Source: an uncultured Pseudomonadales bacterium
GTDB taxonomy: Bacteria > Patescibacteriota > Microgenomatia > UBA1400 > CG1-02-47-37
Length of the DNA stretch: 24,479 nt
Reading direction: 5' to 3'
Assembly (NCBI GenBank): GCA_964650605.1
Contig: CAZYUF010000004.1
Span: 1-24,479 of the forward strand
The position numbers were made by a program, and so were the translations under genes. Below, piece by piece: positions 1 to 21,301 of the stretch; position 1 is the first letter of the stretch; every line of letters begins with the position of its first letter. The notes under the pieces were generated by a model. It worked only from the letters and a program-made list of their open reading frames with translations, made no database searches and was not told the DNA's origin.

Positions 1-45
1 AAGCGCGCCGTTACCTGTCCGGCAACCTACGAGGTCCAACCTTGA
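1..45 (+). CDS. 3' end (partial) of a paralog of the thermonuclease/Ada-like-domain protein at 569..1240
   Basis: Frame +1 reads KRAVTCPATYEVQP* (TGA 43-45). This matches the C-terminus KRAATCPSAYEETPRR* of the 569..1240 protein, and the DNA is also similar (aagcgcgccgttacctgtcc vs aagcgcgccgccacttgtcc). Confidence 0.7.
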   Translation, partial: KRAVTCPATYEVQP

Positions 46-48
46 AAG
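26..48. repeat. 23-bp hairpin, variant C (CCTACGAGGT-CCA-ACCTTGAAAG), degenerate member of the REP-like family
   Basis: Same length, same CCTAC start and same 10+3+10 layout as the other copies. Inner stem GAGGT/ACCTT; outer stem has two mismatches. Same codon position as the 1215 hairpin in the paralog. Confidence 0.55.
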
Positions 49-53
49 TTTAA

Positions 54-185
54 AAATTTGTTGATAATCTGGAAAACTTAAGGTCAAGCGAATTACAAAA
101 AATTGCTTGCGCTCAAAAACATTTTCAAGCCATTGATGTCAATTTTAAAGTAATTCAAAAAGAAGATTTAAGAGATTTAAATTAG
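54..185 (+). pseudogene. Startless remnant resembling the extreme C-terminus of a type III restriction enzyme Res subunit
   Basis: Frame +3 between TAA (51-53) and TAG (183-185) reads KFVDNLENLRSSELQKIACAQKHFQAIDVNFKVIQKEDLRDLN. The LR-x-x-E-x-x-KI-x-C-x-x-x-HF-x-A pattern is one I recall from type III Res C-termini. Not in the ORF track because it has no start codon. Recognised from memory, not searched. Confidence 0.5.
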
Positions 186-188
186 ACT

Positions 189-512
189 ATGCCTGAACAC
201 TTTTTAAAACCGGAAGAAGCCGCCGACGTTCGAGATGTTTTAAAAAAGGCCAAACAAGCCGGAGCTGTTTCGGGTGGGGTATTCGGCAGTATCTTAAAAC
301 CCAAAGCCAGGAAACCCACCAGCGATATTGATATTGTTATCAACGATCCCCAGGCGCCGGTATTCGGGGAGATAGAAAGCGAACAGGGAGAAAAAAGCGG
401 TACCTGGCTGCATATTTTCAAGAAGAAACCAGGTTTCACCGGTGGTAAAAGCCGACGGGAAGAAATACTGAATACTGCTGAAACCGAAGGTAAAAAGCTG
501 TTTGGTAAGTAA
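189..512 (+). CDS. Minimal nucleotidyltransferase (MNT/Pol-beta superfamily)-like protein, 107 aa
   Basis: GVFGS-x10-SDIDIVI fits the hG[GS]x(8-13)DhDh NTase motif, and the size is typical of MNT proteins. Confidence 0.6.
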   Translation: MPEHFLKPEEAADVRDVLKKAKQAGAVSGGVFGSILKPKARKPTSDIDIVINDPQAPVFGEIESEQGEKSGTWLHIFKKKPGFTGGKSRREEILNTAETEGKKLFGK

Positions 513-568
513 AACAGTATACTTTAAAGTTGGCAATTCGGCAGTTTAAAGCGGATAATGTAAGTTAC

Positions 569-1240
569 ATGAAATCTAAGGTTGCCAAGATTAGCTTAAT
601 CACAGTTGCTGTTGCCGGCTTTCTTGGTTTGTCTTTCGGTTCAGCTAAGCCTGTCTATGTTCCCAGTTACCGCGCTGTCCGGGTGATCGACGGCGACACC
701 TTTGAAACCGCCGAAAAACAATGGATCCGCGTTTCCGGCATCGACGCCCCTGAACAGGGTATGTGCGGCAGCCGGGAAGCCAAACAAGAACTGGAAAAAT
801 TGGTTCTCGGCAAAGACATTTACTTAAAAGTCATGTACCACGATTCCACCCGGCTGATGGCCCTGGTATATAGCAAAGATGGCTTAATCGCCACCAAGAT
901 GCTTGCTTCCGGCTGGGCAGAACTTAACGACCGTGACGGTTTAGGTCTGCCGGAATTAAGCCAGGCAGTTAAAGCGGCCCGGGAGCAAAAAATCGGCTTG
1001 TTCAGCCAGCAGTGCACTCAAACGGTTAATCCGGATAAACCTGACTGCAAAATTAAAGCCAACAAAACTACCAATAATCCTCCCACCTACCATTTTCCCG
1101 GCTGCAACTCTTACAATGTGGTTTTAGTTGAACTTCATCACGGCGATGACTGGTTCTGCACTGAAAAAGAAGCCCAGGCTGCCGGTTTTAAGCGCGCCGC
1201 CACTTGTCCATCAGCCTACGAGGAGACTCCTCGCAGGTAA
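569..1240 (+). CDS. Membrane-anchored/secreted thermonuclease (SNase family) with C-terminal Ada-metal-binding-like domain
   Basis: N-terminal hydrophobic segment; RVIDGDTFE and IRVSGIDAPE SNase motifs; C-terminal CKIKAN...YHFPGC...WFCTEKEAQAAGFKRA. ATG 569 preferred over the TTG at 530. The last 8 codons come from the hairpin. Confidence 0.85.
   Translation: MKSKVAKISLITVAVAGFLGLSFGSAKPVYVPSYRAVRVIDGDTFETAEKQWIRVSGIDAPEQGMCGSREAKQELEKLVLGKDIYLKVMYHDSTRLMALVYSKDGLIATKMLASGWAELNDRDGLGLPELSQAVKAAREQKIGLFSQQCTQTVNPDKPDCKIKANKTTNNPPTYHFPGCNSYNVVLVELHHGDDWFCTEKEAQAAGFKRAATCPSAYEETPRR
1215..1237. repeat. 23-bp REP-like hairpin, variant A (CCTACGAGGA-GAC-TCCTCGCAGG)
   Basis: Read directly. 1211..1237 is identical over 27 bp to 19915..19941. 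Confidence 0.95.
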
Positions 1241-1241
1241 A

Positions 1242-1841
1242 CTAAAGGCTTAATTTTAATCTGGCGCCGGAAAGATTGGCCTGCTCGCTGCTGGTGGACA
1301 TCAGCTCAATTACATAAGTATTAGTGCCGCTGTGGAGTTTAAAAGCCGGGGAGTTTTTCCAGGTAGCGGTATTGGAATTATTAAATATTTCCGTTACCTG
1401 CATAATCGCCCCGCTGGTTTTATTTTTCAGTCTGGCCCAGGCTTCGCCGTTGACAATTGACAGTTGCCCTTCAAACACCGCCTTTACTTCCGCCGGATAA
1501 TCACTGCTGTTCAGCTGGATTGCCGCGCTGGTTTCCGTCCATTCGGTTTTAACAGTACTAGCCGAACCCAAATAAATATTCTGGGGCTGCCATTGGACTG
1601 TCGCTGCCGGGGTGAAAACAGAACTCGGACTGGGACTGGGGATTAAACTCGGGCTCGGCTCTAAACCAGGGCTGGGGATTAAACTGGGACTGGGAACCAA
1701 ACTGGGTGTCGGAGCTAATTGTTGGCTGGTAATAAATAAATCCAATCTTTCCGCGAGCTTGTTTTGCTTAAGCCATAAACCAACCACGCCCAAGCCTAAA
1801 ACCATTAAACCCACTATCACTCCAATCTTAAAACGATCCAT
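1242..1841 (-). CDS. Hypothetical membrane-anchored protein with Pro/Ser-rich linker and extracellular beta-rich domain
   Basis: 199-aa ORF with an N-terminal TM helix (IGVIVGLMVLGLGVVGLWL) followed by PSPSLI-type repeats. Confidence 0.7.
   Translation of the reverse strand: MDRFKIGVIVGLMVLGLGVVGLWLKQNKLAERLDLFITSQQLAPTPSLVPSPSLIPSPGLEPSPSLIPSPSPSSVFTPAATVQWQPQNIYLGSASTVKTEWTETSAAIQLNSSDYPAEVKAVFEGQLSIVNGEAWARLKNKTSGAIMQVTEIFNNSNTATWKNSPAFKLHSGTNTYVIELMSTSSEQANLSGARLKLSL
1630..1719. repeat. Five imperfect 18-bp tandem repeats encoding P-[ST]-P-[SG]-L-[IVE]
   Basis: Units: ctgggactggggattaaa / ctcgggctcggctctaaa / ccagggctggggattaaa / ctgggactgggaaccaaa / ctgggtgtcggagctaat. Confidence 0.85.
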
Positions 1842-1847
1842 AAACTT

Positions 1848-1863
1848 TGCTATAATCTTATCA
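1848..1863. promoter_or_regulatory. Overlapping divergent extended -10 promoters
   Basis: Plus strand: TG-C-TATAAT (1848-1856), 6 nt before ATG 1863. Minus strand: TG-A-TAAGAT (1863-1855), 13 nt before ATG 1841. Confidence 0.5.
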
Positions 1864-2726
1864 TGAATCCGCTCAAATATGTTTTGATGATGCTCGCCTA
1901 TCTTTGGTTAAGGTTTGACCCGATCCTCTATATGACTTTTAGAAAAGACTGGACGCCCCGTTATGAATTTTTAGCCAATATTTTTGGTGAAATTGCCGCT
2001 GAAAAGTTTTTAGCCCATCGGGTTGACCTTGTTAAAGCCAGAAATAAAATTTTACCGCCGATAGTTCTTTCCGCTGATGTTGATAAAAAAATCACTGAAT
2101 TTTTAACAACTAAACCCTTGGCCCAACCCAATAAAACCAAGCGTCTGGAAATTATCGACCAACTGATCTTTTGGGCAGTTGATCCGGAGATTAACCGTTT
2201 TAATATCGACAGCTACAAATCCCGCTCCGCTATTGTTGACGCTTTATTGAATCCTATCTTCCAGAACAGTTTAGCCGGTGAAATCAACTGTATCTTAGAC
2301 GGTCTTAAAACAATTGTTTTTTCCCGGGTAACCTACCTTGGCAGTAAAGGTGAACCTTCGCCAATCGTTCACAATGTTATTCTTTCCGGCGCCGCCCGGA
2401 TATTAACTTCTCATTTCAACGAACTTGTCAGGCTAAGGGATGAAAAACTGGACAAATTGACCAAGGTCAGGCTGATTAAAGAAATTAATCAAGCCAAAGG
2501 TGAAACCGGTTCTCTCGCTTTTTCCGCCGAACCCAGAATTGAAGAAGACTTTCAAGCCCGCTACCCATTGCCCAATTATCAGGCCAAGCTTTTATGGAAG
2601 ATTTTAACCCATTACCGCTTTTCCGCTTGGCCGGAATCAAGGGAAAAAGCGGCTAAGCTCATTAACAGCTTCCATAAACAACTGGGCTTTCCCCCGGAAG
2701 AACTATTTGTTTTAAGCAGAAAATAA
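1863..2726 (+). CDS. Hypothetical protein (287 aa) immediately upstream of atpB
   Basis: Long ORF with an ATG start and its own -10 box. No family recognised. Confidence 0.7.
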   Translation: MNPLKYVLMMLAYLWLRFDPILYMTFRKDWTPRYEFLANIFGEIAAEKFLAHRVDLVKARNKILPPIVLSADVDKKITEFLTTKPLAQPNKTKRLEIIDQLIFWAVDPEINRFNIDSYKSRSAIVDALLNPIFQNSLAGEINCILDGLKTIVFSRVTYLGSKGEPSPIVHNVILSGAARILTSHFNELVRLRDEKLDKLTKVRLIKEINQAKGETGSLAFSAEPRIEEDFQARYPLPNYQAKLLWKILTHYRFSAWPESREKAAKLINSFHKQLGFPPEELFVLSRK

Positions 2727-2743
2727 TATATAATCAACCTATC

Positions 2744-3457
2744 ATGGCCTTGAATATTTCCATATCGGCAGAGCCGATTTTTAATTTCGGGCAGTTTGAA
2801 TTTACCAACTCCATGCTGGTCAGCCTTCTGGTCACCCTGGGTTTATCAATTTTAGCCGTCAGCTTTAGCCTGTATCTGCAATCAAAGAGAAAATCAAACT
2901 TCTTTGTCTTTATTCAAACAATTCTTGAATCATTTTATGAATTTGTTCAATCGATCGCTCCCCAGCAGGCCGGCCGCTTTTTCCCCTTAATTACCTCAAT
3001 TTTTTTATTTGTGATGTTCGCCAGCTGGGCCGGATTATTGCCGGGAGTGGAAACCATTTTTTGGCATGGAGTTCCACTTTTCCGGGGCGGCACCGCTGAT
3101 TTAAATATTACTTTAGGCTTAGCGATCTTTGCCGTTATCAGTATTCAAATCTATGGCTACAAAACCTTGGGGATGAAATATTTTAAAAAGTTTTTTGATT
3201 TTTCCAATCCGATTAATTTCTTTGTCGGATTCTTAGAATTAATCAGCGAATTTGCCCGCATTATGTCTTTTGCTTTTAGGTTATTCGGCAATATCTTTGC
3301 CGGCGAGGTTTTGCTGGCCGTAATCGCTTTTCTGGTGCCGGTGTTTGCCTCCCTGCCCTTCATGGGCCTGGAAATATTTGTCGGCTTTATTCAGGCCTTA
3401 GTTTTTGCTACACTGACTTTAGTCTTTATTAATATCGCTACTACCAGCCATCATTAA
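2744..3457 (+). CDS. atpB: F0F1 ATP synthase subunit a
   Basis: Hydrophobic; ELISEFARIMSFAFRLFGNIFAGE (conserved Arg helix) and EIFVGFIQALVF. Confidence 0.97.
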   Translation: MALNISISAEPIFNFGQFEFTNSMLVSLLVTLGLSILAVSFSLYLQSKRKSNFFVFIQTILESFYEFVQSIAPQQAGRFFPLITSIFLFVMFASWAGLLPGVETIFWHGVPLFRGGTADLNITLGLAIFAVISIQIYGYKTLGMKYFKKFFDFSNPINFFVGFLELISEFARIMSFAFRLFGNIFAGEVLLAVIAFLVPVFASLPFMGLEIFVGFIQALVFATLTLVFINIATTSHH

Positions 3458-3465
3458 ATTATCTT

Positions 3466-3695
<230 letters not shown>

Positions 3696-3702
3696 ATCAC
3701 TA

Positions 3703-3708
3703 AAGGAG
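3703..3708 (+). promoter_or_regulatory. Shine-Dalgarno site for atpF
   Basis: AAGGAG 7 nt upstream of ATG 3716. Confidence 0.7.
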
Positions 3709-3715
3709 ACAAGCC

Positions 3716-4204
3716 ATGTCCATCCATTGGTATCAGCTTTTGTTTCAAATCATTAATTTTGGCATTTTAATTTTGGTGTTGAAGAAGTTTCTTTATCGGC
3801 CGATCATTACCATCATTAATCAGCGTAATAAAAAAATTGAAGATTCAATTAAAGCCGCTGAAGCTAATTTAAAAGAAAAAGCCAAAATCGAAGAGATTAA
3901 AAAACAGGCGGTGATGGAAGCGGAAAAAGAAGCAGTCCGGATTGTTGAGGCCGCCCGGAAAGAATCAGATAAAACCGCTAAACAAATTCTTCAGGCCGCC
4001 CGCACTGAAGCCGAAGGCGAAGTCGATAAAAAATTAAAACTTTTGACTGAAAAATTGGCCGAACAAGAAAGCCAAATTACCGGCCGGATTACTGACCTGG
4101 TGATTAAAGCCACTCAGAGTGTTTTAAAAGGCAGCCTTACCGTCAGCCAACAAAATGCCATTATTGACAGCGAAATTAAAAAACTAGCCAAATTATCTAA
4201 ATAA
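3716..4204 (+). CDS. atpF: F0F1 ATP synthase subunit b
   Basis: QIINFGILILVLKKFLYRPI N-terminal anchor followed by a charged coiled coil; operon position. Confidence 0.95.
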   Translation: MSIHWYQLLFQIINFGILILVLKKFLYRPIITIINQRNKKIEDSIKAAEANLKEKAKIEEIKKQAVMEAEKEAVRIVEAARKESDKTAKQILQAARTEAEGEVDKKLKLLTEKLAEQESQITGRITDLVIKATQSVLKGSLTVSQQNAIIDSEIKKLAKLSK

Positions 4205-4554
4205 TGAAAGATTCCTATCAAATTGAAGCCATTACCGAAGCGATTTTAGATTACCTGCAAAGCAAAAAAGCCTTGGATTTACTCCCCTCAATTGCTCAAA
4301 AATTAACCGAAGCCGGCTGGGTAAAAATTGATCCGGACCTGGCCCAAATCAGCGCCCCGATCAAGCTTTCTTCTCTCCAAACCAAAGCTATCCAAACTAA
4401 ATTATCAGCCGGTTTTAAACGGCCGATCAGGGTTAAAACCAAAATTGACCCCGGCATTATTGCCGGTTTGAAGATTAGCGTGGCCGGCAAAATCATTGAT
4501 GCTACCGTCAACAACCGTTTAAAAACCTTAAAAGAACAGATAATCTATGCCTGA
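4204..4554 (+). CDS. atpH: F0F1 ATP synthase subunit delta (short form)
   Basis: C-terminal OSCP-like IDPGIIAGLKISVAGKIIDATVNNRL; lies between atpF and atpA. Confidence 0.9.
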   Translation: MKDSYQIEAITEAILDYLQSKKALDLLPSIAQKLTEAGWVKIDPDLAQISAPIKLSSLQTKAIQTKLSAGFKRPIRVKTKIDPGIIAGLKISVAGKIIDATVNNRLKTLKEQIIYA

Positions 4555-6044
4555 TTTACAAAAAATCATTGCCGACCGGATTAATCAATTTACGCCCGAA
4601 CTAAGCGCCAAGAGCGTCGGTAAAATCATTACTCTGGGTGACGGTGTCGCCACTATCAGCGGCTTAAATGATGCCATGATGTCCGAAATCCTCGAGTTCC
4701 CCCGCCAGACCTACGGTCTGGTTCTCAACTTAGAAAAGCACTCGGTCGGGGCGATTATCTTAGGCGGCTATCAGCATTTAAAGGAAGGGGATGAAGTCGC
4801 TACTACCGGAAAAATTCTCCAAATCCCGGTTGGCGAAGCTCTGCTTGGCCGGGTAATCGGTCCTTTAGGCAACCCGATTGACGGCCAGCCTGCCCCCAAA
4901 ACCACAGCCAATAACCCTTTAGAAAAAATTGCTCCCGGGGTGATTACCCGTGAAAAAGTCAACCAGCCGGTGCAAACCGGGATCAGCGCGGTTGACAGCA
5001 TGATTCCCATCGGCCGGGGACAGCGGGAATTGATTATCGGCGACCGCAGTACCGGCAAATCTTCGATTGCCATCACCACCGTTATCAACCAAATCAAGAA
5101 AAATCTTATCTGCGTTTACGTGGTTATCGGTCAAAAGGCCGCTTTTACCTCTCAGTTGGTCGAAACGCTGAAAAATTTTAAAGCTCTCGATCACACTATT
5201 ATTGTTGCCGCCAATGCCGCCGACTCACCCTCCTTGCAGTACCTGGCCCCTTATGCCGGCATGGCCATTGCCGAACATTTTGCCGGCCTGGGCCAAGATG
5301 CTTTAGTCGTTTTTGATGATCTTTCCAAACACGCCTGGGCTTACCGCGAGCTTTCTTTACTGCTCCGCCGCCCATCCGGCCGCGAAGCTTATCCGGGCGA
5401 TGTTTTTTATCTGCATTCCCGTTTGCTGGAGCGGGCGATTAAGTTCAATAAAGATAATGGCGGCGGCTCGATTACCGCCTTGCCGATTATTGAAACTCAA
5501 GCCGGCGATATTTCCGCCTATATTCCCACCAATATTATTTCAATCACTGACGGCCAGATTTATCTGGAAACAGACTTATTTAATGCCGGTATCCGTCCGG
5601 CTATTAACGCGGGACTGTCTGTTTCCCGGGTGGGCGGTAATGCCCAAATTAAAGCCATGCGCCAGGTAGCCGGCAAGTTAAGAATGGACTTGGCCCAATA
5701 CCGGGAAATGGCCGCCTTTGCCCAATTTTCTTCTGATCTTGACCCGGCCACTAAAGCCCAGCTGGACCGGGGCGCCAAAATCACTGAAATCTTAAAACAG
5801 GGCTGGGATAAACCCCTGCCGGTGGAAGAGCAGGTGCTCATCATCTGGGCTGTCACCACCGGTTATTTGGATCAGACTCCTTTGGATAAAATCAAAATCT
5901 GGCAGTCGGAATTTATCACTTACCTTGCCTCCACTCAGCCGGAAATTGCCGCCGCCATCGCCCGGGAAAAAATCCTTTCCGATAAAACTATCAAATCCTT
6001 GCAAAAATATACCCAAAAATTTAATAACCTGCATCCTGATTTAT

Positions 6045-6058
<14 letters not shown>
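4547..6058 (+). CDS. atpA: F0F1 ATP synthase subunit alpha
   Basis: GRGQRELIIGDRSTGKS, RRPSGREAYPGDVFYLHSRLLER and SITDGQIYL motifs. Confidence 0.99.
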
Positions 6059-8346
<2,288 letters not shown>

Positions 8347-8349
8347 CTT

Positions 8350-8778
8350 ATGGCCGCCAACAAACTAAGCCTAACGGTTATTACCCAGGAGAAAATTGTC
8401 CTACGGGATGAGGTTGACCTGGTTTTGGCCCCGGGCTGGGATGGTCAAATCGGCCTCTTGCCCGGCCATATCGGCTTGCTCACTAAACTCCAGCCCGGCG
8501 AACTGTTTATTTTTAAAGGCCCGACAATCACTGTTTTGGCTGTTTCCGGCGGTCTCTTGGATATTCATAATAATCAATTAAGCGTCATGGCTGACAGCGC
8601 TGTCCGGGCCGACGAGATTGATGTCGCTAAAGTCGAAGCCGCCAAACTCAAAGCTGAAGAAGCTTTAAGAGAACGCTTGTCCGGCACTGAATTTGCTCTG
8701 GCCGAAGCCGACTTAAGAAAAGCGGTTTTAGAATTAAAAGTTGCTAAAAAACGCTATCGACACCAACATGGAATTTAA
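8350..8778 (+). CDS. atpC: F0F1 ATP synthase subunit epsilon
   Basis: GQIGLLPGHIGLLTKL, VSGG and a C-terminal helical hairpin. Confidence 0.96.
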   Translation: MAANKLSLTVITQEKIVLRDEVDLVLAPGWDGQIGLLPGHIGLLTKLQPGELFIFKGPTITVLAVSGGLLDIHNNQLSVMADSAVRADEIDVAKVEAAKLKAEEALRERLSGTEFALAEADLRKAVLELKVAKKRYRHQHGI

Positions 8779-9814: not shown

Positions 9815-11188
9815 ATGGCTTTAGATCCTATTATTTTTAAAGATTACGATATCCGTGCCTTAGTTCCCAGCCAGCTTGATGCCGCCGGCATTAAGCGGAT
9901 TGCCCAAGCCATGGTGAAATTATTTCAACCCCATTCAGTGCAGATCGGCCGGGACATGCGCCTCACTTCAGTCGAATTACAGCAAGCCTTAATTGCCGGC
10001 TTTTTAGAATCCGGCGTTAATGTCGTCGACTTAGGCCTGATCGCCACCGATATGCTCTATTACGCTTCCGGCACTTACCCCGAAGATCTGGGCATTACCA
10101 TCAGCGCTTCCCATAATCCGCCCGAATATAACGGCCTGAAAATTGTTAAAAAAGGCGCCATAGCCATCAGCGGCAACAGCGGCATTTATCAAATCCGCGG
10201 CCTGGCCGTTTCTGATCAGGATTTAGGCCTTAAAGGCGTTCCGCCGGGAACTTTAACCAAAAGGGATATTTTAGCCGAATGGGTTAACCATGCCCTTAAA
10301 TTTATCGATTTAACTCAAATGAAGCCGTTTAAAGTCGTTATTGATGCCGGTAATGGCATGGCCGGTTACTTTATGCCTGCTTTTGAAGCTAAATTGCCCT
10401 GGCGGGCCACCCGGCTTTTTTATGACTTGGACGGCAGCTTTCCTAATCATCTTCCCAGTCCCAGCGAAGAGAAAAATATGGTCCCGACTATAAATGCTGT
10501 CAAAGGCGGCGGCGCTGATCTTGGTATGGCTTTTGACGGCGACGGCGACCGCGTTTTCTTAGTCGACGAAACCGGCCGGATTGTCTCCGGTACCATTATG
10601 ACGGCTATTATTGCCGAAAACTTGCTCCAAAAACATCCTCACGATACTGTTCTTTATAATGCTATCATCGGCCGGGTAGTCCCGGAAATAATTAAACAAC
10701 ACCAGGGTAAGGCAGTCCGTGTCCGCGTCGGCCACACCTTGATTAAAGAAGCCATGCGGACTAATAACGGCCTGTTTTGCGGCGAACATTCCGGCCATTA
10801 TTATTTCCGGGATAATTTTTTCGCTGATTCCGCTATTATTTCCGCTCTCTTAGTCTTAGAATTGATTTCCCAAAAAAAAGTTCAACTATCCCGCCTGGTT
10901 GACCGTTATGATAAATATCCCTGTTCCGGAGAAATCAACTTTGTCGTTACCGACAAACAAAGCGTCCTAAAACAAATCCAAGCCGAGTATCAGTCACGGA
11001 CCAAATCAATCGATTGGCTGGACGGCATCTCTTTATGGTTTCCGGCTTGGTGGGCCAATATCCGTCCTTCCCACACCGAACCGCTGCTGCGCTTGAACTT
11101 GGAAGCCGATAATGCAAAAATTTTGCAAACCAAAACCGAAGAATTTATTAAACTGATTGAACGCCTTGGCGGTAAAAGGAAGTTATGA
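9815..11188 (+). CDS. Phosphomannomutase/phosphoglucomutase (alpha-D-phosphohexomutase)
   Basis: FKDYDIR, TISASHNPPEYNG phosphoserine loop, DGDGDR metal loop and GEHSGH. Start ATG 9815. Confidence 0.95.
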   Translation: MALDPIIFKDYDIRALVPSQLDAAGIKRIAQAMVKLFQPHSVQIGRDMRLTSVELQQALIAGFLESGVNVVDLGLIATDMLYYASGTYPEDLGITISASHNPPEYNGLKIVKKGAIAISGNSGIYQIRGLAVSDQDLGLKGVPPGTLTKRDILAEWVNHALKFIDLTQMKPFKVVIDAGNGMAGYFMPAFEAKLPWRATRLFYDLDGSFPNHLPSPSEEKNMVPTINAVKGGGADLGMAFDGDGDRVFLVDETGRIVSGTIMTAIIAENLLQKHPHDTVLYNAIIGRVVPEIIKQHQGKAVRVRVGHTLIKEAMRTNNGLFCGEHSGHYYFRDNFFADSAIISALLVLELISQKKVQLSRLVDRYDKYPCSGEINFVVTDKQSVLKQIQAEYQSRTKSIDWLDGISLWFPAWWANIRPSHTEPLLRLNLEADNAKILQTKTEEFIKLIERLGGKRKL

Positions 11189-12264
11189 AAAATTTAGATA
11201 AATTCAATGTTTACGGCTCTATCCTGGACTTAGCCAAGCAATGCCGGCACGCCTATAAAGAAGCCAATCAGGTGGAAATTAAACCCCGCCCAGTTAAACA
11301 GTTGATTATGTCCGGCATGGGCGGCTCGATTCTGGCAGCCCGGGTAATTGAATCACTTTACGCTCAGGAACTGACAGTCCCTTTAATCAAAGTTAATGAT
11401 TATCATTTACCGGCTTGGGCCGATCAAAACAGTTTACTGGTTTGTTCCAGTTATTCCGGCACCACAGAAGAGACGGTCCAAACTTTAAAAGAGGCCATCC
11501 TTAAAAACTGTCAAATTTTAGTTATCTGCGGCGGGGGAGAGCTGGAAACACTAGCCAAACAACATCGCTTGCCGCTGTATAAAATCAACCCGGTTTATAA
11601 TCCCTGTAATCAGCCCCGCATGGCCATCGGTTACTCTTTGATTGGCCAGCTGGTTATGGTCGCCAAAGCCGGCTTATTAAAATTAGCGCAAAAAGAGATT
11701 GACCAGCTTGAGCCGGTCCTGCAGACGGTCATCAAAACTAATCAGCGTGATTTGCCTTTAGCGGTTAATCCGGCCAAAAAGTTAGCCCAAGCCCTGCACA
11801 CTAAACAAATAGTGATGGTGGCAGCCGAACACCTGACCGGCGCTTTCCATGTGGTGAAAAATCAGCTGAATGAGAATGCCAAACAGTTATCCCACCGCCA
11901 CGATTTGCCTGAACTAAACCACCATCTGCTCGAGGGTTTGCGTTTTCCTGAATCTAATCAAAAAGATGTGGCTTTCTGGCTGGTTAACTCTAAGCTCTAT
12001 TCTCCCCGTCTGCAAACTCGTGTCCGCTTGACTATCGATGTGGTTCAAAAAAATAAAATCAAGGCTTTTACCTTTACCCCCTCTGCTGACACTAAACTGG
12101 CCCAGGTTCTGGAACTGATTCAATTCGGCAGTTTTGTTAACTATTATTTAACCGTCCTTAACCGCCTGGATCCCGCCCCTATCCCCTGGGTCGCCTACTT
12201 CAAGAAGAGCCTACAAGGAACATCCTTGCAGGCTAATTCTCCAAATCAATTGTTAAATCTTTAA
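11185..12264 (+). CDS. Bifunctional phosphoglucose/phosphomannose isomerase (SIS-domain PGI/PMI) with hairpin-derived C-terminal extension
   Basis: SGMGGS, SYSGTTEET, QPR, NENAK and PELNHH. The expected end (DPAPIPWVAYFKK) continues through the hairpin as SLQGTSLQA and into the antisense tail of the transposase. Confidence 0.9.
   Translation: MKNLDKFNVYGSILDLAKQCRHAYKEANQVEIKPRPVKQLIMSGMGGSILAARVIESLYAQELTVPLIKVNDYHLPAWADQNSLLVCSSYSGTTEETVQTLKEAILKNCQILVICGGGELETLAKQHRLPLYKINPVYNPCNQPRMAIGYSLIGQLVMVAKAGLLKLAQKEIDQLEPVLQTVIKTNQRDLPLAVNPAKKLAQALHTKQIVMVAAEHLTGAFHVVKNQLNENAKQLSHRHDLPELNHHLLEGLRFPESNQKDVAFWLVNSKLYSPRLQTRVRLTIDVVQKNKIKAFTFTPSADTKLAQVLELIQFGSFVNYYLTVLNRLDPAPIPWVAYFKKSLQGTSLQANSPNQLLNL
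12210..12232. repeat. 23-bp REP-like hairpin, variant B (CCTACAAGGA-ACA-TCCTTGCAGG)
   Basis: Read directly; abuts the stop codon (12233-12235) of the minus-strand transposase remnant. Confidence 0.95.
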
Positions 12265-12404
12265 TAGTCACCACATCTCTTTCTTCTTGTTCTTCAACAA
12301 AATCCTGATAAGATTGTTTTTTAAAATAACTAAGAACTTCGCTTGTCTCCAGCCAAGATTGCGAAAACCTTCCCAGATAATTGGAATAACTAGAATATTT
12401 ATAG

Positions 12405-12427
12405 CCTTCAAGGAACATCCTTGCACT
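12405..12427. repeat. Hairpin variant B inside transposase copy 1 (CCTTCAAGGA-ACA-TCCTTGCACT)
   Basis: Read directly; translated on the minus strand as SARMFLEG. Confidence 0.9.
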
Positions 12428-12699
12428 TGCAGTCAGTGGATTCCTATGAATATATTTACTGATATAGATTAGCTGAGTTTCAGTTTTAATCTCGACAGCT
12501 TTAAAAATATTTTCGTATAATGGGCCGACTCGGTTATATTTTTTATTAAAATACAGCGAATACTTTGTTGCCAACGAACGCATAAAATGATTAATGCCGT
12601 CAATATCCACCTGATAAAGCAAAAAGTGATAGTGATTAGGCATTAAACAATAGGAATGAAGTCTCACTTTTCCAAAGTAATTTTTTAACCGTGAGGGTG

Positions 12700-12722
12700 C
12701 CTGCAAGGAACATCCTTGCAGA
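12700..12722. repeat. Hairpin variant B at the truncated 5' end of transposase copy 1 (CCTGCAAGGA-ACA-TCCTTGCAGA)
   Basis: Read directly; minus-strand frame reads LQGCSLQA. Confidence 0.92.
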
Positions 12723-12765
12723 TTTGCAGATATTCAAAAAGGTGCTAGCCTAAACTAAAAAAAAC

Positions 12766-12774: not shown

Positions 12775-12780
12775 TAATCA

Positions 12781-15075: not shown

Positions 15076-16324
15076 GATTGTTAAAATTTTCGCCCGGGAA
15101 ATTTTAGACTCCCGCGCTAATCCGACGATCGAAACCACGGTCTTTTTAGACTCCGGCCATCAGGGCAAATACAGTGTCCCTTCCGGCGCTTCTTCCAGCA
15201 AATACGAAGCCTTTGAATTAAGGGACAATGATCCCGACCGCTTTGCCGGCATGGGAGTTTTAAAAGCCGTTAATCATGTTAATCAAATCATTGCCCCCAA
15301 AGTGATCGGCCTTGACCCCTCCTCTCAAACCAAGCTTGACCAACTATTAATTGATCTTGACGCCACCCCCAACAAAAGTAATTTAGGGGCTAATGCCCTT
15401 CTCTCGGTTTCTATTGCCGGTCTTAAAGCCAGTGCCGCCTATTATTGCTTACCGGTTTATCAATATATTGCTAAAAAGTATGGCTTAACTAAAATTATAA
15501 AAAAACTGCCCAGCCCAACCTTCAATATCATCAATGGCGGGGCCCATGGTGCCGGCAACTTAGATTTTCAGGAGTTTCATGTCATTCCTACTGCCAGATT
15601 TTCTTACCAGAAAGCCCTGCAAATGGGGATTGAAATTTATCATAGTCTTAAAAAAACCCTTAAGCTGCGGGGAGCGATCCACTCGGTTGGTGATGAAGGC
15701 GGTTTTGCCCCTAACTTATTTACCAACCTGGACGCCTTGGAAGTCATCCTTGAATCGATTAAGCAAACTCAGTATAAACTAACTCAGGATGTTTTTTTAG
15801 GCCTGGATGTTTCGGCGGGATTTTTCTTCAAACACAATCAATATCAGATTAAAGATCGGGCCCAGCCTTTTTCCCGGGATGAATTCATCGCTTACTATCA
15901 ACAGCTCAATCATGAATATCATCTTTTTTCCCTGGAAGACGGTTTAGATCAGGATGACTGGGAAGGCTGGTCTAAGCTGACCGACGAGCTCGGCCAAACT
16001 ACTTTAATTGTTGGCGATGACCTGCTTTCCACCAATAAAGAACGGGTGAAAAAAGCCATCGCCCTCAAAGCCTGCAATGCCGCTTTAATTAAACCCAATC
16101 AAATCGGCACGGTTTCCGAAACCATTGAAGTGATTAAATACTGTCAGGAAAATAATTTAAAAATCATTGTCTCCCACCGTTCCGGGGAAACCAACGATAC
16201 CTTTATTGCCGATTTAGCCGTGGGGGTCGGGGCCGATTACACTAAGTTTGGCGCCCCGGCACGGGGAGAAAGAATCGTCAAATACAACCGGTTGTTAGAA
16301 ATAGAAACCGAGCTTAAACTATAG
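15068..16324 (+). CDS. eno: Enolase
   Basis: AREILDSRANPT, VPSGAS, VGDEGGFAP, VSHRSGET and RGERIVKYNRLL. Confidence 0.98.
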   Translation: MAKIVKIFAREILDSRANPTIETTVFLDSGHQGKYSVPSGASSSKYEAFELRDNDPDRFAGMGVLKAVNHVNQIIAPKVIGLDPSSQTKLDQLLIDLDATPNKSNLGANALLSVSIAGLKASAAYYCLPVYQYIAKKYGLTKIIKKLPSPTFNIINGGAHGAGNLDFQEFHVIPTARFSYQKALQMGIEIYHSLKKTLKLRGAIHSVGDEGGFAPNLFTNLDALEVILESIKQTQYKLTQDVFLGLDVSAGFFFKHNQYQIKDRAQPFSRDEFIAYYQQLNHEYHLFSLEDGLDQDDWEGWSKLTDELGQTTLIVGDDLLSTNKERVKKAIALKACNAALIKPNQIGTVSETIEVIKYCQENNLKIIVSHRSGETNDTFIADLAVGVGADYTKFGAPARGERIVKYNRLLEIETELKL

Positions 16325-16325
16325 T

Positions 16326-17951
16326 ATGGATAAATCTCCGCTGGTTTTGATTATTTTGGACGGTTGGGGAATTTCTGCTCCCGGCCCGGGCAATGCCATT
16401 ACCAAAGCTCACCTGCCTTATTTTCACCAACTTCAGTCTGCCTACCTCTCAACTGAATTAGTTGCTTCCGGTCAGGCGGTCGGTCTCCCCGCCGGAGAAG
16501 ACGGCAACACCGAAGTCGGCCATATTAACATCGGCGCCGGCCAGATTGTCTTCCAGGACTTGCCCCGGATTAATACCGCTATTGCCGACGGCTCCTTCTT
16601 TCTCAATCCCAATCTCCTTAAAGCAATCGAGCATGTTCAAACTAACCATTCTACTTTGCATTTGATGGGCTTGATCGGTTCCGGCGGCGTTCATGCCAAT
16701 AACGAACACCTTTTCGCTTTGATCAAATTTGCCAAATTAAACAATATTCAAAAGCTTAGCCTGCACTTATTTACTGACGGCCGCGATTCCCCTCCCACCA
16801 CTTCCCAAACTTATTTAGCCGAAGTCCAGCAACACTTAACCGACAACAAACTGGGCGTCATTGCTTCGATTATGGGCCGCTACTACGCCTTGGACCGTGA
16901 CTTCCGCTGGGAAAGAACTCAAAGAGCTTATGAATGTCTCACTCAAGGCACTGGCTTAAAAGCTACCTCAGCCATCCAGGCAGTGCAAAACTCTTACCTT
17001 CAGCAAAAAACCGACGAGTTTATCGAACCCACTGTCATAACCGACACCAGCGGCACGCCTTTATCCTTAATTCAGGATAATGACGCCGTGATTTTCTATA
17101 ACTTCCGGGTTGACCGTCCCCGCCAACTGACCAAAGCTTTTGTTCTGTCTGATTTTGCCGCCCAGGCCAACCAACTGGCTTTCGACCCTTTAGCCGACCG
17201 TTATCTCCATAGCCATCTGCCTGCCAAAGCTTCTGTCAATCCTCCCTTCTCCCGTCAAATATTCCTGAAGCGTCTTTTCTTTTTAACCATGACCGAATAC
17301 CAGGCCAACTTGCCGATACCGGCGATTATTTCGCCCCAGCATATCGAAATGCCTTTAAGCCGGGTCCTCAGTGAAGCCAATATCCGACAGTTAAAAATCT
17401 CGGAAACCGAAAAAGAGCGCTTCGTCACTTACTATTTTAACGGCCAGCGGGAACAGCCTTTTGACGCCGAAGATTGGCTGATCATTCCCTCTCCAAAAGT
17501 CGCCACCTACGATCTACAGCCGGAAATGTCTACTCCTCAATTAACCACTGCCTTAATCAATAAGCTAAAAACCGGATTTTATCAGTTTATTGCCATTAAT
17601 ATCGCCTGTCCGGACATGGTCGCCCACACCGGCAACTTAGCCGCTACCATCAGGGCCTGCGAAGCTGTTGACGCTTTTCTGTCCCAAACAATCCCGGTTA
17701 TTTCAGCTCTCAATGGCTCGGCAATTATTACTGCCGACCACGGCAATGCTGAAGAGTTAATCAATTTGCAGACCGGCCAAATCGATACGGAACATTCCGC
17801 CAACCCGGTCCCTTGTATTATTGTTAGCTCTCAATTTCAGGGCCAAACCAGAAAATTAAACCAGGGAATTTTAGCCGACGTTGCTCCGACTATTTTAAAA
17901 CTATTAAACCTGCCTAAGCCTGAGCAAATGACCGGCACCAGTTTAATTTAA
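16326..17951 (+). CDS. gpmI: 2,3-bisphosphoglycerate-independent phosphoglycerate mutase
   Basis: LIILDGWG, GNTEVGH, DGRD, NFRVDR, ETEK, PDMVAHTG and TADHGNAE. Confidence 0.97.
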   Translation: MDKSPLVLIILDGWGISAPGPGNAITKAHLPYFHQLQSAYLSTELVASGQAVGLPAGEDGNTEVGHINIGAGQIVFQDLPRINTAIADGSFFLNPNLLKAIEHVQTNHSTLHLMGLIGSGGVHANNEHLFALIKFAKLNNIQKLSLHLFTDGRDSPPTTSQTYLAEVQQHLTDNKLGVIASIMGRYYALDRDFRWERTQRAYECLTQGTGLKATSAIQAVQNSYLQQKTDEFIEPTVITDTSGTPLSLIQDNDAVIFYNFRVDRPRQLTKAFVLSDFAAQANQLAFDPLADRYLHSHLPAKASVNPPFSRQIFLKRLFFLTMTEYQANLPIPAIISPQHIEMPLSRVLSEANIRQLKISETEKERFVTYYFNGQREQPFDAEDWLIIPSPKVATYDLQPEMSTPQLTTALINKLKTGFYQFIAINIACPDMVAHTGNLAATIRACEAVDAFLSQTIPVISALNGSAIITADHGNAEELINLQTGQIDTEHSANPVPCIIVSSQFQGQTRKLNQGILADVAPTILKLLNLPKPEQMTGTSLI

Positions 17952-17955
17952 ATTT

Positions 17956-19947
17956 ATGGAATTAGCCAGCCTGTTTTCCCCCCGCTCCATTGCTCTAATC
18001 GGCGCCTCGGCCAATAAAGCCAAACTCGGCTGGCAAATTCTAAATAAACTACGGCAAAGCCATTTGCCGATTTTTCCCATTAATCCCCATGAATCCCAAA
18101 TCGCAAACACCCGCGCTTATCCTTCGATTCTGGACGTGCCTGATCCGGTTGATCTGGCCATCGTGGTTGTGCCCGCCCCGATCGTTAATGTGGTCGTAGA
18201 GCAAGCCGCCGAGAAAAAAGTTAAGTCGATCGTGGTAATTTCCGCTGGTTTTTCTGAAACCGGTCCCCAAGGAAAAAAACTGGAGATCGTTTTAAAAAAA
18301 CTCTGCCGAAAACAGCAAATTAATCTCCTTGGTCCCAATGTTTTGGGTTTTGCCAACCCGGCCAAGAAGTTAGATATTACTTTTGCCAAAACCGCTCCTA
18401 TGCCTGGCAACATCGGCTTAATCTCTCAATCAGGCGCCATCGGTGCCTACCTTTTTGACTGGGCTAAATCAGAGAATCTGGGGTTTTCTAAATTTGTTTC
18501 CTTAGGCAACCGCGCCGGTTTAACCGAAACTGACTTCTTAACTTTCCTGTCCGCCGACCCGGACACCAAAGTAATTGGTCTTTATCTGGAATCATTTGCC
18601 GACGGCCAGAAATTTTTATCCGTGACCAGCCAGGTGGCTCGAAAAAAACCAATCGTAGTTATTTTTGGCGGCCAAACTCAAGCCGGCAAACAAGCCGCCC
18701 TCAGCCACACGGCCGCCTTAAGCCCGGAAACAGCCGTGATTAAAACCGCTTTGGCTCAAGCCGGCTGTATTCAAGCCGATAATTTAGAGGCTTTCACCGG
18801 CTTATTGGAAATTTTTTCTCTGGAACCACCCTTAGTTGACAATGACCTCGTGATTGTCACTAATGCCGGCGGTCCGGGAATCTTAGCCGCTGACAAGGCC
18901 GACGCGGTCCGCTTAAAAGTGGAGCGGCCAACTGATGTTCGGGGCGACGCTTTGGCAGAACAGTTCAACACGGCTTTCCGGCAAGTGATTAAAGATAAGA
19001 TTAAAGACGCTTTCTTAATTATTCTTACTCCGCAAACTATGACTCAGTTGGAACTAACCTGTCAGGCAGTAGTAAAACAATTTAAACACATTAAAAAACC
19101 AATAGTCGTTTCCTTGTTAGGCGGAGAAATCACCGCTAAGGCTAAGGAGATTTTAAGAAAAAACCGGATTGCCACTATCGACTTTCCCCAAAAAGCCGTT
19201 GACTATCTAAGTATTCTTTTCCAATATTGGCACAACCGCACTCAGCAAATTACTTATCCTGTGAGGCGAAGCTCACTTATTAAAGTTTCTTGCCCCCGTC
19301 TTCAGCCTGGACAACAAACTTGGCAGCAAATTAAAATCTTAGCCAAAGCTTACCATTTGCCTTTGGTTGCAACTAAAATTGTCAAGGAAAACTCTCTACT
19401 TCAATTAATTAAAGAGTTCGGCTTTCCTTTAGTTTTAAAAGCCGACCCAACCGAAGCTTTGCACCGGACTGAAAAAAAAGCTTTGTTTCTTAATTTAAAC
19501 TCCGCCAAGACCGTTCAAAAATACTTTAATCAATTAAAGTCCCGCTTTACCACCATTCTGATCCAGCCGCAAATCCGTTCCGGCCATGAACTATTCATTG
19601 GTGTCAAGCGCCCCCCTAGCTTCCCCCCCTTATTAACCATTGGCTCAGGCGGAATTTACACCGAAATTTATCAGGATGTGGGCCACACTTTTTTACCTGT
19701 CAACAAAACCTCCGCCTTAAAACTGTTAGCTCAAACTAAACTCGGACAGATCTTGCAGGGCGCCCGGGGCCTGCCGCCGACCAATCTCCGCCCGGTAATC
19801 GATTTAATTTTAAATGTCTCCCAATTAGCGCTTAACTTCCCCCAAATCGAAGAAATAAATATCAACCCGGCCATTATCAATCAAAATAAAGTAGACATCG
19901 TCGATATCAAAATCTCAGCCTACGAGGAGACTCCTCGCAGGCTCTAA
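17956..19947 (+). CDS. Acetate-CoA ligase (ADP-forming), fused alpha/beta (ACD family)
   Basis: CoA-binding N-domain (IALIGAS, AYPSILDVPDPVDLA, GPNVLG), SQSGA, ALSHT phospho-His, TNAGGPG and a C-terminal ATP-grasp (PLVLKA, ININP). No GNAT domain. Last 9 codons are hairpin-derived. Confidence 0.9.
   Translation: MELASLFSPRSIALIGASANKAKLGWQILNKLRQSHLPIFPINPHESQIANTRAYPSILDVPDPVDLAIVVVPAPIVNVVVEQAAEKKVKSIVVISAGFSETGPQGKKLEIVLKKLCRKQQINLLGPNVLGFANPAKKLDITFAKTAPMPGNIGLISQSGAIGAYLFDWAKSENLGFSKFVSLGNRAGLTETDFLTFLSADPDTKVIGLYLESFADGQKFLSVTSQVARKKPIVVIFGGQTQAGKQAALSHTAALSPETAVIKTALAQAGCIQADNLEAFTGLLEIFSLEPPLVDNDLVIVTNAGGPGILAADKADAVRLKVERPTDVRGDALAEQFNTAFRQVIKDKIKDAFLIILTPQTMTQLELTCQAVVKQFKHIKKPIVVSLLGGEITAKAKEILRKNRIATIDFPQKAVDYLSILFQYWHNRTQQITYPVRRSSLIKVSCPRLQPGQQTWQQIKILAKAYHLPLVATKIVKENSLLQLIKEFGFPLVLKADPTEALHRTEKKALFLNLNSAKTVQKYFNQLKSRFTTILIQPQIRSGHELFIGVKRPPSFPPLLTIGSGGIYTEIYQDVGHTFLPVNKTSALKLLAQTKLGQILQGARGLPPTNLRPVIDLILNVSQLALNFPQIEEININPAIINQNKVDIVDIKISAYEETPRRL
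19919..19941. repeat. 23-bp REP-like hairpin, variant A (CCTACGAGGA-GAC-TCCTCGCAGG)
   Basis: Read directly; identical to 1215..1237 including the preceding TCAG. Confidence 0.95.
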
Positions 19948-20600
19948 AACATCAATACTATCTCGCCTTTAATTTTCCTGTCTCGCATTTTTTCTAAAAG
20001 CTCTTCCGGTCTGCCCCGCACTACTTCTTCAAACTTTTTTGTCAGCTCCCGGCAGATAACCACTTGCTTTTCCGGCATTAATTTTTGCAGCAGTTCTAAA
20101 GTTTTAATTATTCTATAGGGGGATTCATAAGCAATCACTGTATATTTAGCCTCTTTTAGCAATTTTTCTTTTTTCCCCGCTTTCTTGGGCAAAAATCCTA
20201 AAAATGTAAACTTGTCAGTTGGCAAGCCGGAAACTACCAAAGCCGCCAGCAATGCCGACGCCCCGGGAATCGGAACAACCTGAATATTTTCTTTTACGCA
20301 TTCCCGCACTAATTTAAAACCCGGGTCGGAAATCAGCGGCGTGCCGGCGTTAGTGACCAAACCGACACTTTTGCCTGCTTTCAACCAAACAATTACCTCG
20401 GGAATTTTTTGCTCTTCCACCGGTTCATAAAAACTGACCAGTATCGGCAAAGGTTTTATCTGATAAAAATCCAACAACTGCTTGGTTTTACGCGTATCCT
20501 CGCACAAAAGATAGTCCAGTTTAGTGAAAATCTCCAAAGCCCGCAAGGTAATATCCTGGCGGTTGCCGATCGGCGTTGACACTATATAAATTTCAGCCAT
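19944..20600 (-). CDS. rsmI: 16S rRNA (cytidine1402-2'-O)-methyltransferase
   Basis: IVSTPIGNRQDITLRAL, CEDTR, AGTPLISDPG, YESPYR and RELTKKFEE. Confidence 0.96.
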   Translation of the reverse strand: MAEIYIVSTPIGNRQDITLRALEIFTKLDYLLCEDTRKTKQLLDFYQIKPLPILVSFYEPVEEQKIPEVIVWLKAGKSVGLVTNAGTPLISDPGFKLVRECVKENIQVVPIPGASALLAALVVSGLPTDKFTFLGFLPKKAGKKEKLLKEAKYTVIAYESPYRIIKTLELLQKLMPEKQVVICRELTKKFEEVVRGRPEELLEKMRDRKIKGEIVLMF

Positions 20601-20609
20601 ATGACTAAA

Positions 20610-20618
20610 ATTATATCA
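20610..20618 (-). promoter_or_regulatory. Extended -10 box for rsmI
   Basis: Minus-strand TG-A-TATAAT, 9 nt before ATG 20600, directly beside the hairpin remnant at 20621. Confidence 0.55.
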
Positions 20619-20630
20619 TGCCTACGAGTG

Positions 20631-20653
20631 CCTGCGAGGAGTCTCCTCGCAGG
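20631..20653. repeat. Hairpin variant A (CCTGCGAGGA-GTC-TCCTCGCAGG)
   Basis: Perfect palindrome around a central T; abuts the stop codon (20654-20656) of transposase copy 2. Confidence 0.95.
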
Positions 20654-21301
20654 TTAAATTTCTTCAATCAAAACAGATTTTATAGTGGGCAAGTCACGTT
20701 CGTCAGTTTCCTCAACAAACGATTTATAAGTACTATTAATAAAATCCAAAGGTTCAACCCAAGCTTGGCTGAACAATCTTAAATAATTAGGATAGCTCGA
20801 GTACTTATAACCTGCAAGACCTGCGAGGAGACTCCTCGCAGGCAAAAGATTCAGGGGATTACGATGAATATACTTAGATAAATAAAGTAATTGATCCTCG
20901 CTTTCCACCAAAACTGCTTTATAAACGCTCTGGAAAACCGGGCCGACCCGCTTGTATTTTCGATTAAAATAACGGGAGTATTTAGTTGCCAAAGATCGCA
21001 TAAAAAAATTAATCCGGTCAAATTCATTCTGCCAGATTAATAGGTGAAAATGGTTAGGAAGCAAACAATAAGCAATTAGTTTAACCTGGTCGGCGTAATT
21101 TTTTAGTTGCTTCGATGGCGCTACTTTAACCTGCGAGGAGTCTCCTCGCAGGTCGGGAAAAGACAAATAAAACTTTAGATAGCTTAAAAAAGTTTTATAG
21201 TCTTGCTCGTTTAGGAATATCGGTTCCTTGTTTACGCCACGGTTATATATATGATAATAGCTTTTCTCGACATATATTTTTAACGTATTTTTCGAAGGCA
21301 T
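20654..21301 (-). CDS. rayT: REP-associated tyrosine transposase (RAYT-like, Y1/HUH, IS200/IS605 superfamily), copy 2, apparently intact
   Basis: YHIYNRG, YCLLPNHFHLL (HUH), YIHRNP (NP motif) and YKYSSY; no tnpB nearby. ATG 21301 (MPSKN) preferred because TATAAT lies 7 nt upstream of it; ATG 21310 is the alternative. Confidence 0.9.
   Translation of the reverse strand: MPSKNTLKIYVEKSYYHIYNRGVNKEPIFLNEQDYKTFLSYLKFYLSFPDLRGDSSQVKVAPSKQLKNYADQVKLIAYCLLPNHFHLLIWQNEFDRINFFMRSLATKYSRYFNRKYKRVGPVFQSVYKAVLVESEDQLLYLSKYIHRNPLNLLPARSLLAGLAGYKYSSYPNYLRLFSQAWVEPLDFINSTYKSFVEETDERDLPTIKSVLIEEI
20820..20842. repeat. Hairpin variant A inside transposase copy 2 (CCTGCGAGGA-GAC-TCCTCGCAGG)
   Basis: Perfect palindrome; translated as PARSLLAG. 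Confidence 0.95.
21130..21152. repeat. Hairpin variant A inside transposase copy 2 (CCTGCGAGGA-GTC-TCCTCGCAGG)
   Basis: Perfect palindrome; translated as DLRGDSSQV. Confidence 0.95.

Follow-up and report, generated by a model that had tools for sequence, protein, structure and literature searches.

How do related genes come to carry different DNA hairpins at the same positions within their reading frames, while the hairpins of any one gene stay alike? This question is raised by a 24,479-nucleotide (nt) stretch, hereafter the window, which is a complete contig (C4, CAZYUF010000004.1) of a 697-kb Patescibacteria (Beckwithbacteria-like) genome assembled in 86 contigs with 43% G+C; the relatives of its genes lie in Candidatus Beckwithbacteria and other Microgenomates. 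The window holds two Y1/HUH genes resembling REP-associated tyrosine transposases (RAYTs), each bracketed by short palindromes of the repetitive extragenic palindrome (REP) kind and carrying further copies in frame. An initial annotation had proposed that these hairpins evolve in concert, with sites being overwritten wholesale and the loop acting as a code. Here we report strong support for concerted evolution of the hairpins within elements, and support for their replacement in register, by which position and codon phase are inherited and sequence is swapped.

Hairpins vary in concert within elements

The full REP unit is a 23-nt near-perfect palindrome of the form CCTRCRAGG-N5-CCTYGYAGG. In the window, a pattern search returned three matches to the variant B core AAGGAACATCCTT (12215, 12410 and 12705) and six to the variant A core GAGGAGWCTCCTY (1220, 19924, 20636, 20825, 21135 and 21322), each against a chance expectation of 0.04. 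As the initial annotation had it, every hairpin of RAYT copy 1 is variant B and every hairpin of copy 2 is variant A. The two elements comprise the following features.

12210..12232: REP of family B, centre AACAT on the plus strand; 3' flank of RAYT copy 1 and also the tail (LQGTSLQA...) of a convergent SIS/pgi-like gene at 11185-12264
12233..12706, minus strand: RAYT copy 1 (paralogue B), with HUH (NHYHFLL) and YIHRNP; it lacks module 1, some 50 residues at the N-terminus, and is cut off precisely at the hairpin of site 1
12405..12427: copy 1, internal site 2, translated in frame as SARMFLEG; its centre is of family B and its outer stem has decayed
12700..12722: copy 1, internal site 1 (family B), encoding LQGCSLQA; since the truncation it forms the 5' border of the gene
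20631..20653: 3' flanking REP of RAYT copy 2 (family A), which follows the stop codon immediately and has a partial arm duplicate, CCTACGAGTG, in front of it
20654..21310, minus strand: RAYT copy 2 (paralogue A), complete at 218 residues; its HUH motif reads NHFHLLI and its catalytic Tyr belongs to YIHRNP
20810..20818: 9-nt tandem duplicate of a hairpin arm beside site 2 of copy 2, inserting LAG into the protein
20820..20842: copy 2, internal site 2 (family A), just past the catalytic-Tyr helix and translated in frame as PARSLLAG
21130..21152: copy 2, internal site 1 (family A), translated in frame as LRGDSSQV and placed in a loop between helix 35-49 and strand 76-83 (predicted local distance difference test score, pLDDT, 66-73)
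21317..21339: REP of family A, 5' flank of copy 2, with one arm of the CAAGG type that gives an A.C mismatch

Both the alignment position and the codon phase of LRGDSSQV agree with those of LQGCSLQA at site 1, and those of PARSLLAG with those of SARMFLEG at site 2, so the claim that different variants occupy the same protein positions in the same frame stands. To place this pair within a family, we fetched 80 related loci from other Microgenomates genomes, giving a set of 86 genes. Across these, internal G+C-rich hairpins cluster at only two alignment positions, corresponding in copy 2 to residues 54-61, occupied in 22 genes, and residues 158-162, occupied in 39.

Hairpins of one element resemble each other far more than they resemble hairpins at the same site elsewhere. 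Over the central 15 nt, median identity is 1.0 within an element and 0.56-0.68 at the same site between elements; over the central 17 nt, the mean number of mismatches is 0.81 within an element vs 5.55 for the same site in other elements, a separation reached in 0 of 2000 label shuffles. The initial annotation had named site-specific vertical descent as the outcome that would speak against it; among 53 internal hairpins the nearest neighbor lies in the same element for 36 and at the same site of another element for 5, with 12 ties. Between elements, variation is concentrated in the outer stem and in the central pentamer (1.2-1.9 bits), which is the most variable part, and at variable positions agreement within elements is 0.96-0.98. 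Between pentamer and outer stem there is hardly any variation (C at -7, A at -6, A or G at -5), and the invariance of the GG and CC that adjoin the pentamer is set by our hairpin filter, which demanded them. About 45 relatives in other Microgenomates genomes each carry one variant at all sites; when the elements are tabled in tree order, each shows one centre at all four places with a variable pattern of orientations, and elements with mixed variants are rare.

The same holds within the genome that contains the window, where tblastn recovers six RAYT paralogues at 39-74% identity; wherever a REP family is seen for a paralogue, it is that paralogue's own. Paralogues A, B, C and D have four variants, each at its own flanks, site 1 and site 2. 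For paralogue C (contig C48) the centre is TCCAA/TTGGA at both flanks and both internal sites, and for paralogue D (contig C1) AAGGACAGTCCCT stands at these four places. Paralogue E is flanked by its own variant with internal copies absent, and no hairpins were found at the flanks or internal sites of paralogue F. The genome holds roughly 80 REPs in matching families (22 of C, 14 of A, about 10 of D, 9 of B and 7 of E); three further families, TCCGA, ACGGA and ATGGA, have no obvious RAYT in the genome and are possible orphans. Pentamers and stems reassort across all these units. The rule of one RAYT to one family holds in every genome with at least two loci. Imperfections are shared as well: variant D has an A.C mismatch in every genomic copy, in both orientations, and one relative (L010) has a wobble at all four sites. 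Such imperfections common to all copies of a family argue for copying. With four paralogues and some 45 relatives each holding to one variant, the concerted evolution proposed in the initial annotation is strongly supported.

We also considered shuffling of protein modules at the hairpins and rejected it: for 16 close elements, the identity matrices of the three modules (N-terminus to site 1, site 1 to site 2, site 2 to end) show no clear incongruence.

Position and codon phase are inherited while sequence is switched

The history of the hairpins was read on a protein tree from which the hairpin columns had been left out; it was made by a quick method and is weakly supported. On this tree the pentamer takes 26 states in 59 elements and requires at least 41 changes (47-51 with shuffled labels), a count that weak support may have inflated and of which at least 25 are forced by the number of states. 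Site-2 codon phase changes only three times on the same tree. In the clade of paralogues A-D, most members have 22 nt between the centre of the hairpin and the SS codons, although at least eight variants occur there, and the exceptions, off by 9, 12 or 18 nt, are explained by tandem arm duplicates, of which paralogue C has two extra copies of the kind seen at 20810..20818. Site 2 is a true indel, since the interval between the NP (or QA) and SS codons measures 15-24 nt when empty vs at least 36 nt with a hairpin; it is empty in L056, L066, L070, L075, L080, L040 and paralogue E. Its centre is read in three codon phases in three clades, and site 1 always in one phase. Inherited position and phase combined with rewritten sequence argue against random reinsertion and against independent point mutation, and support replacement of the hairpins in register.

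Hairpin families switch at host sites

Replacement of this kind is also seen at REPs away from the RAYT genes, in a comparison with G001, the genome holding locus L051, which has about 85% DNA identity to our genome and is syntenic with it across window positions 1211-24479. At the tail of an ACD-like gene, CGAGG-AGACT-CCTCG in our genome corresponds to CGAGG-TCCGA-CCTCG in G001, and the alignment of the flanks comes to within 0-1 nt of the REP; all five centre bases have changed, 17 of 18 arm bases are unchanged, and the new pentamer is exactly that of a resident family. At position 3725 of contig C9, a family B consensus in our genome corresponds to a family C consensus in G001, 23 nt for 23 nt, between flanks that are 90-92% identical, and position 3550 of contig C5 is a third family switch. 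A compensated stem change is found at an orthologous dispersed site (contig C3, position 9721). The other shared REP sites show 0-2 base differences or a flip, and one REP is absent from G001. The suggestion that sites are repeatedly replaced thus receives backing from in-register family switches at orthologous host sites, as from an inherited codon phase with an often rewritten centre.

Three further REPs in the window lie in host gene tails.

26..48: hairpin in the tail of a partial open reading frame (ORF) with which the contig begins; as a hybrid it combines an A-type 5' arm (CGAGG) with a family C centre (TCCAA) and a degenerate C-type 3' arm, the last of which contains the stop codon TGA
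1215..1237: REP of family A, centre AGACT, encoding the C-terminal tail YEETPRR* of an SNase-domain gene at 530-1240; it lies exactly at the G001 synteny breakpoint
19919..19941: REP of family A, encoding the tail YEETPRRL* of an acetyl-CoA-synthetase (ADP-forming)-like gene at 17956-19947; at the orthologous G001 site the arms are unchanged and the centre is TCCGA

The first two had been described as paralogous thermonuclease tails in which variants C and A begin at the same codon. Entry at the same codon is borne out (...TYEVQP* vs ...AYEETPRR*), and the two tails (1-48 and 1190-1240) share 82% identity over 34 nt; the hairpin at 26-48, however, is a hybrid of A-type arm and C centre rather than plain variant C, and only 48 nt of the first putative thermonuclease tail fall within the window.

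The two genes are divergent RAYT-like REPtrons

Both copies match the Pfam model Y1_Tnp (PF01797) at 33.6 and 29.6 bits, above the cut-off of 23. Scores against NCBIfam NF047646 (REP_Tyr_transpos) are 30-53 bits, below its cut-off of 80. The HUH residues H87 and H89 are invariant in 37 sequences and located in model strand 87-94. The class-2 signature Y---NP takes the form YIHRNP in paralogues A-D, with Y147 and H149 invariant in the family alignment; many distant members of the clade have YIHKQA in its place. An AlphaFold model (mean pLDDT 86) has as its top match in the PDB the E. coli TnpA-REP structure 4ER8_A (E 1.6e-6, target-normalised template-modelling score 0.63), with IS200/IS605 TnpA structures ranking after it. 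The link to 4ER8 came from this fold search, as a sequence search of the PDB with the family profile gave only marginal matches to ISDra2 (E 0.013). The above-cut-off Y1_Tnp match, HUH and YIHRNP motifs, 4ER8-like fold and sub-cut-off REP_Tyr_transpos score together identify these as divergent RAYT-like genes. Flanked by palindromes that also occur elsewhere in the genome, the two units are REPtrons. Copies 1 and 2 share 56% amino-acid identity and are old paralogues, not recent duplicates.

An unpaired GTAG/CGTC tetranucleotide at the 5' foot of the REPs was not found; GTAG occurs only within the paired stem (CCTAC...GTAGG) and is swapped for GCAG or GAAG in many REP copies, among them all in-frame ones. 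Nor do the elements look like those of IS200/IS605 TnpA, which have several near-identical copies and distinct end hairpins: here the copies are 39-74% identical and both ends are the same palindrome.

Cassettes and other observations at REP borders

Not all differences from G001 are hairpin switches. At the ppsA-RAYT-pgi locus, G001 has a full-length RAYT with one variant (CAGGG-TCGGA-TCCTG) at all four places, and our genome has variant B with module 1 absent, a loss that is consistent with a REP-to-REP deletion. At third codon positions the two RAYTs are 46% identical, compared with 74% for ppsA and 61% for rsmI; they are therefore two deep paralogues at one locus, where a whole cassette has been exchanged. 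REPtron A (window 20603-21386) is absent from G001 (L096:3100-3130), in which the starts of rsmI and korA lie 18 nt apart with the REP between them absent. As rsmI is in place in G001, the variable unit is the RAYT alone and not a block of rsmI plus transposase. An apparent second site-1 truncation, in L051, proved to be an artefact of a run of N between the 5' REP and the site-1 REP.

Several side observations concern the borders of these elements. REPtron D (C1:18905-18935 and 19656-19680; locus L002) stands as REP-RAYT-REP between two host copies of about 20 bp, TTCACrGTGACGGATTTrGy, a sequence that is single and element-free at the orthologous G001 site (L133:1500-1522). The arrangement looks like a target duplication, or like precise loss between direct repeats; a target duplication, if true, would be unexpected for an IS200/IS605-type enzyme. 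The REP at window 1211-1237 meets its G001 counterpart (G001:C3:11558-11582, L085) colinearly to the right, and to the left continues into the SNase-domain gene in our genome vs a membrane-protein gene in G001, whose tail SLRGVSSQVI* is likewise REP-encoded. At C2:9396-10143 (L102), a gene of about 200 amino acids with no known function and a REP-encoded tail YEETPRR sits between two family-A REPs, with GGRGGAATTTTA before each; the same locus in G001 (G001:C1:50979-52119, L111) has a small gene and a full RAYT with TCGGA hairpins, so the same neighbors enclose different cassettes.

A TCGGA-centre REP occurs in our genome as well, in frame (NLQGRTLEE) inside a host gene at C22:2443-2465, and its sequence matches that of site 2 in a G001 RAYT exactly; a RAYT carrying this variant was not found in our assembly. 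At L102 (C2, about 10070-10120), a family-B REP carries three copies of its 5' arm (GGTTACAAA repeats) and two of its 3' arm, much like the 9-nt duplicates of an arm that adjoin site 2 in paralogues A and C. Hairpin feet are hot spots for short tandem duplication. Elsewhere in the window, at least four tandem 18-nt units (ACTGGGACTGGGGATTAA-like) lie at 1629-1736 inside an ORF without a Pfam match (1242-1841, minus strand). Assembly breaks or N padding occur at REPs in L051:1398-1497 and at several G001 contig ends, and apparent RAYT truncations in metagenome-assembled genomes should be checked for gaps at REPs before they are interpreted.

Discussion

We think it probable that these are Microgenomates-wide REPtrons that keep their cognate REP in frame in two permissive linkers, with one family per paralogue and replacement in register, and we infer the cognate RAYT to be the driver. 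One linker lies before the HUH strand and the other just after the catalytic-Tyr helix, and the variable part is the central pentamer together with stem positions around a fixed CRRGG-N5-CCYYG scaffold. Each paralogous lineage has its own REP family, copies in and beside the gene being kept identical to that family, and the same swapping in place occurs at REP sites in host gene tails. The cognate RAYT may itself do the swapping or may drive it, conceivably by cutting and rejoining single-stranded hairpins and so exchanging REPs where a compatible hairpin already sits. The hairpins of its own gene would then be the first targets because transcription and translation are coupled. Whole cassettes, too, can be exchanged, inserted or deleted at REP borders. 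A stronger version makes the RAYT a rewriter of hairpins in place, swapping a REP or only its central 5-nt cassette at the same phosphodiester positions, ORF interiors included, with own-gene copies serving as a self-updating mark or autoregulatory target and excised REP single strands annealing by their arms, much as in recombineering, to explain the flips. We regard this version as unlikely; if true, a 23-nt unit would be edited without change of length or frame.

Several points weigh against the reading we think probable. Families B and C have the same arms and the same genome, yet their internal sites are never cross-contaminated, which demands a strong cis preference that we must assume. 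The initial annotation took the loop plus adjacent pairs as the specificity determinant, and the centre is indeed the most variable part; paralogues D and E, however, have the pentamer ACAGT in common and differ only in their stems, so any code cannot reside in the loop alone. Its idea of overwriting fits the in-register switches at host sites but not the ppsA-RAYT-pgi difference, where deep-paralogue divergence rules out positional orthology as proof of rewriting in situ. The possible inflation of the pentamer count belongs here too, and only about ten orthologous dispersed REP sites can be compared with G001, since its contigs often end at REPs.

Homogenisation could also proceed with no enzyme of the element's own, through short-patch gene conversion or replication template switching between nearby or dispersed palindromes whose common arms pair, which would now and then also convert a site to a different family, the RAYT merely co-evolving. 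Arms are common to families, and pentamers and arms reassort, with TCCAA, TCCGA, ATGGA and TCGAA all on the TGACAAGG scaffold and TCCGA on A-type arms at the ACD-like tail of G001; centre orientation flips freely between sites and orthologues, as expected if arms pair either way, and the tandem arm duplications point to slippage. But arms of 9 nt are very short for RecA-type conversion, and such a process accounts neither for the separateness of B and C at their own genes despite common arms and genome, nor for the one-RAYT-one-family rule in every genome with two or more loci. We consider it possible but on balance unlikely. Loss and regain, in which current-family REPs reinsert repeatedly into two loops that tolerate about eight extra residues, old copies are deleted and selection purges insertions elsewhere, would need no overwriting. 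It would suit the presence/absence polymorphism of site 2, the three site-2 codon phases in three clades (implying at least two or three separate acquisitions or shifts), the placement of both sites in loops or linkers of lower model confidence, and the occurrence of intragenic REPs in many genes (PMC3733652). Random reinsertion would nevertheless scramble both phase and single-nucleotide position, which are fixed within clades over many switches; the dispersed orthologous swaps exchange 23 nt for 23 nt and leave flanks that align right up to the REP, and differing variants at exactly the same phosphodiester positions in related elements are largely what is seen. This makes loss and regain quite improbable.

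Vertical descent under selection, with hairpins as needed binding sites that each track enzyme specificity by their own point and compensatory mutations, was already disfavoured, and we judge it highly improbable. Near relatives do differ by small steps, such as AGACT vs AGAGT between paralogue A and L005 or one compensated stem pair between paralogue C and L011, and the stem change on contig C3 is of this compensated kind. The same multi-base changes and mismatches at all sites of an element and all dispersed copies are nonetheless hard to reconcile with independent mutation, as are the rarity of mixed-variant elements and a tail whose whole pentamer, and almost none of its arms, was exchanged for that of a resident family.

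The family thus gives a handle on how repeat families spread, stay homogeneous and switch sequence. With four copies per element, two of them locked in frame, position and phase can be traced at single-base resolution through dozens of switches, and the data on in-register replacement count against simple point mutation and random reinsertion. Natural enzyme/hairpin sets, A to E, coexist in a single genome and suit assays of specificity and exchange, and if the swap is made by the enzyme, it would be a case of a small protein rewriting a short DNA cassette in place.

Comparison with known systems

The elements resemble REPtrons such as that of E. coli TnpA-REP (4ER8; PMC2817692, PMC3333891, PMC8266576) in their Y1/HUH fold with HUH and Y---NP motifs, in a gene with short palindromes on either side, of which further copies are scattered through the genome, mostly at gene 3' ends, and in having one REP family per RAYT, with enzyme and REP co-varying. 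Co-evolution of RAYT/TnpA-REP with REPs is known (PMC8266576). They differ in being very divergent in sequence (41 bits against NCBIfam REP_Tyr_transpos, with a cut-off of 80), in having six paralogues in a 0.7-Mb genome rather than the usual single copy, in low REP copy numbers of about 7-22 per family, in a GTAG that, if present, is paired in the stem rather than a free 5' tetranucleotide, and in carrying REPs in frame at two fixed positions within the gene. Compared with the norm of Bertels 2017, a single copy per genome or per REP family, there is one paralogue per REP family where a family is seen, not one per genome.

The closest match for the in-frame copies is subclass 2.4 of TnpA-REP (Quentin 2018, PMC6006769), equivalent to RAYT group 4 of Bertels 2017. 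The searched parts of PMC6006769 describe REPs that have entered tnpA-REP genes with the frame preserved, for the most part between HuH and Y, and a long, variable HuH-Y spacing with a median of 88 amino acids. On that description, both systems have the enzyme's own REPs in frame within its gene in a region of variable protein length. Here, in contrast, HuH and Y are 60 amino acids apart (H87 to Y147), and the insertions occupy two fixed positions, at about residues 54-61 before HuH and about 158-162 after Y; co-switching with the flanks and conservation of codon phase are not reported in those parts of the paper.

Switching itself recalls the orthoswitch (Nunvar 2013, PMC3686654), in which syntenic RAYTs of related strains are flanked by different REP classes. 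Its authors assumed mutation of the flanking REPs, stating that they "can only speculate" on the mechanism, and reported that RAYT duplication accompanies REP diversification, with old classes persisting as orphans; action of RAYTs in cis via coupled transcription and translation was also proposed there. Our elements likewise have different REP variants at syntenic RAYTs, and TCCGA, ACGGA and ATGGA as possible orphans. Unlike in the orthoswitch, an element switches all four of its copies jointly and in register, including the two that are in frame; dispersed sites in host genes switch too, and at one syntenic locus the RAYT itself has been replaced by a deep paralogue.

Intragenic REPs and stop codons supplied by REPs are known as well (Di Nocera 2013, PMC3733652), and our hairpins resemble these and the Rickettsia palindromic elements as palindromes that are read in frame or supply the stop and tail of a host gene. 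Those cases are scattered in unrelated genes, whereas here the palindromes hold conserved, self-matching positions in the gene of the enzyme presumed to mobilise them. REPs inside tnpA-REP genes (Quentin 2018) and the REP orthoswitch (Nunvar 2013) are already published, and the family described here extends this known REP/RAYT biology.

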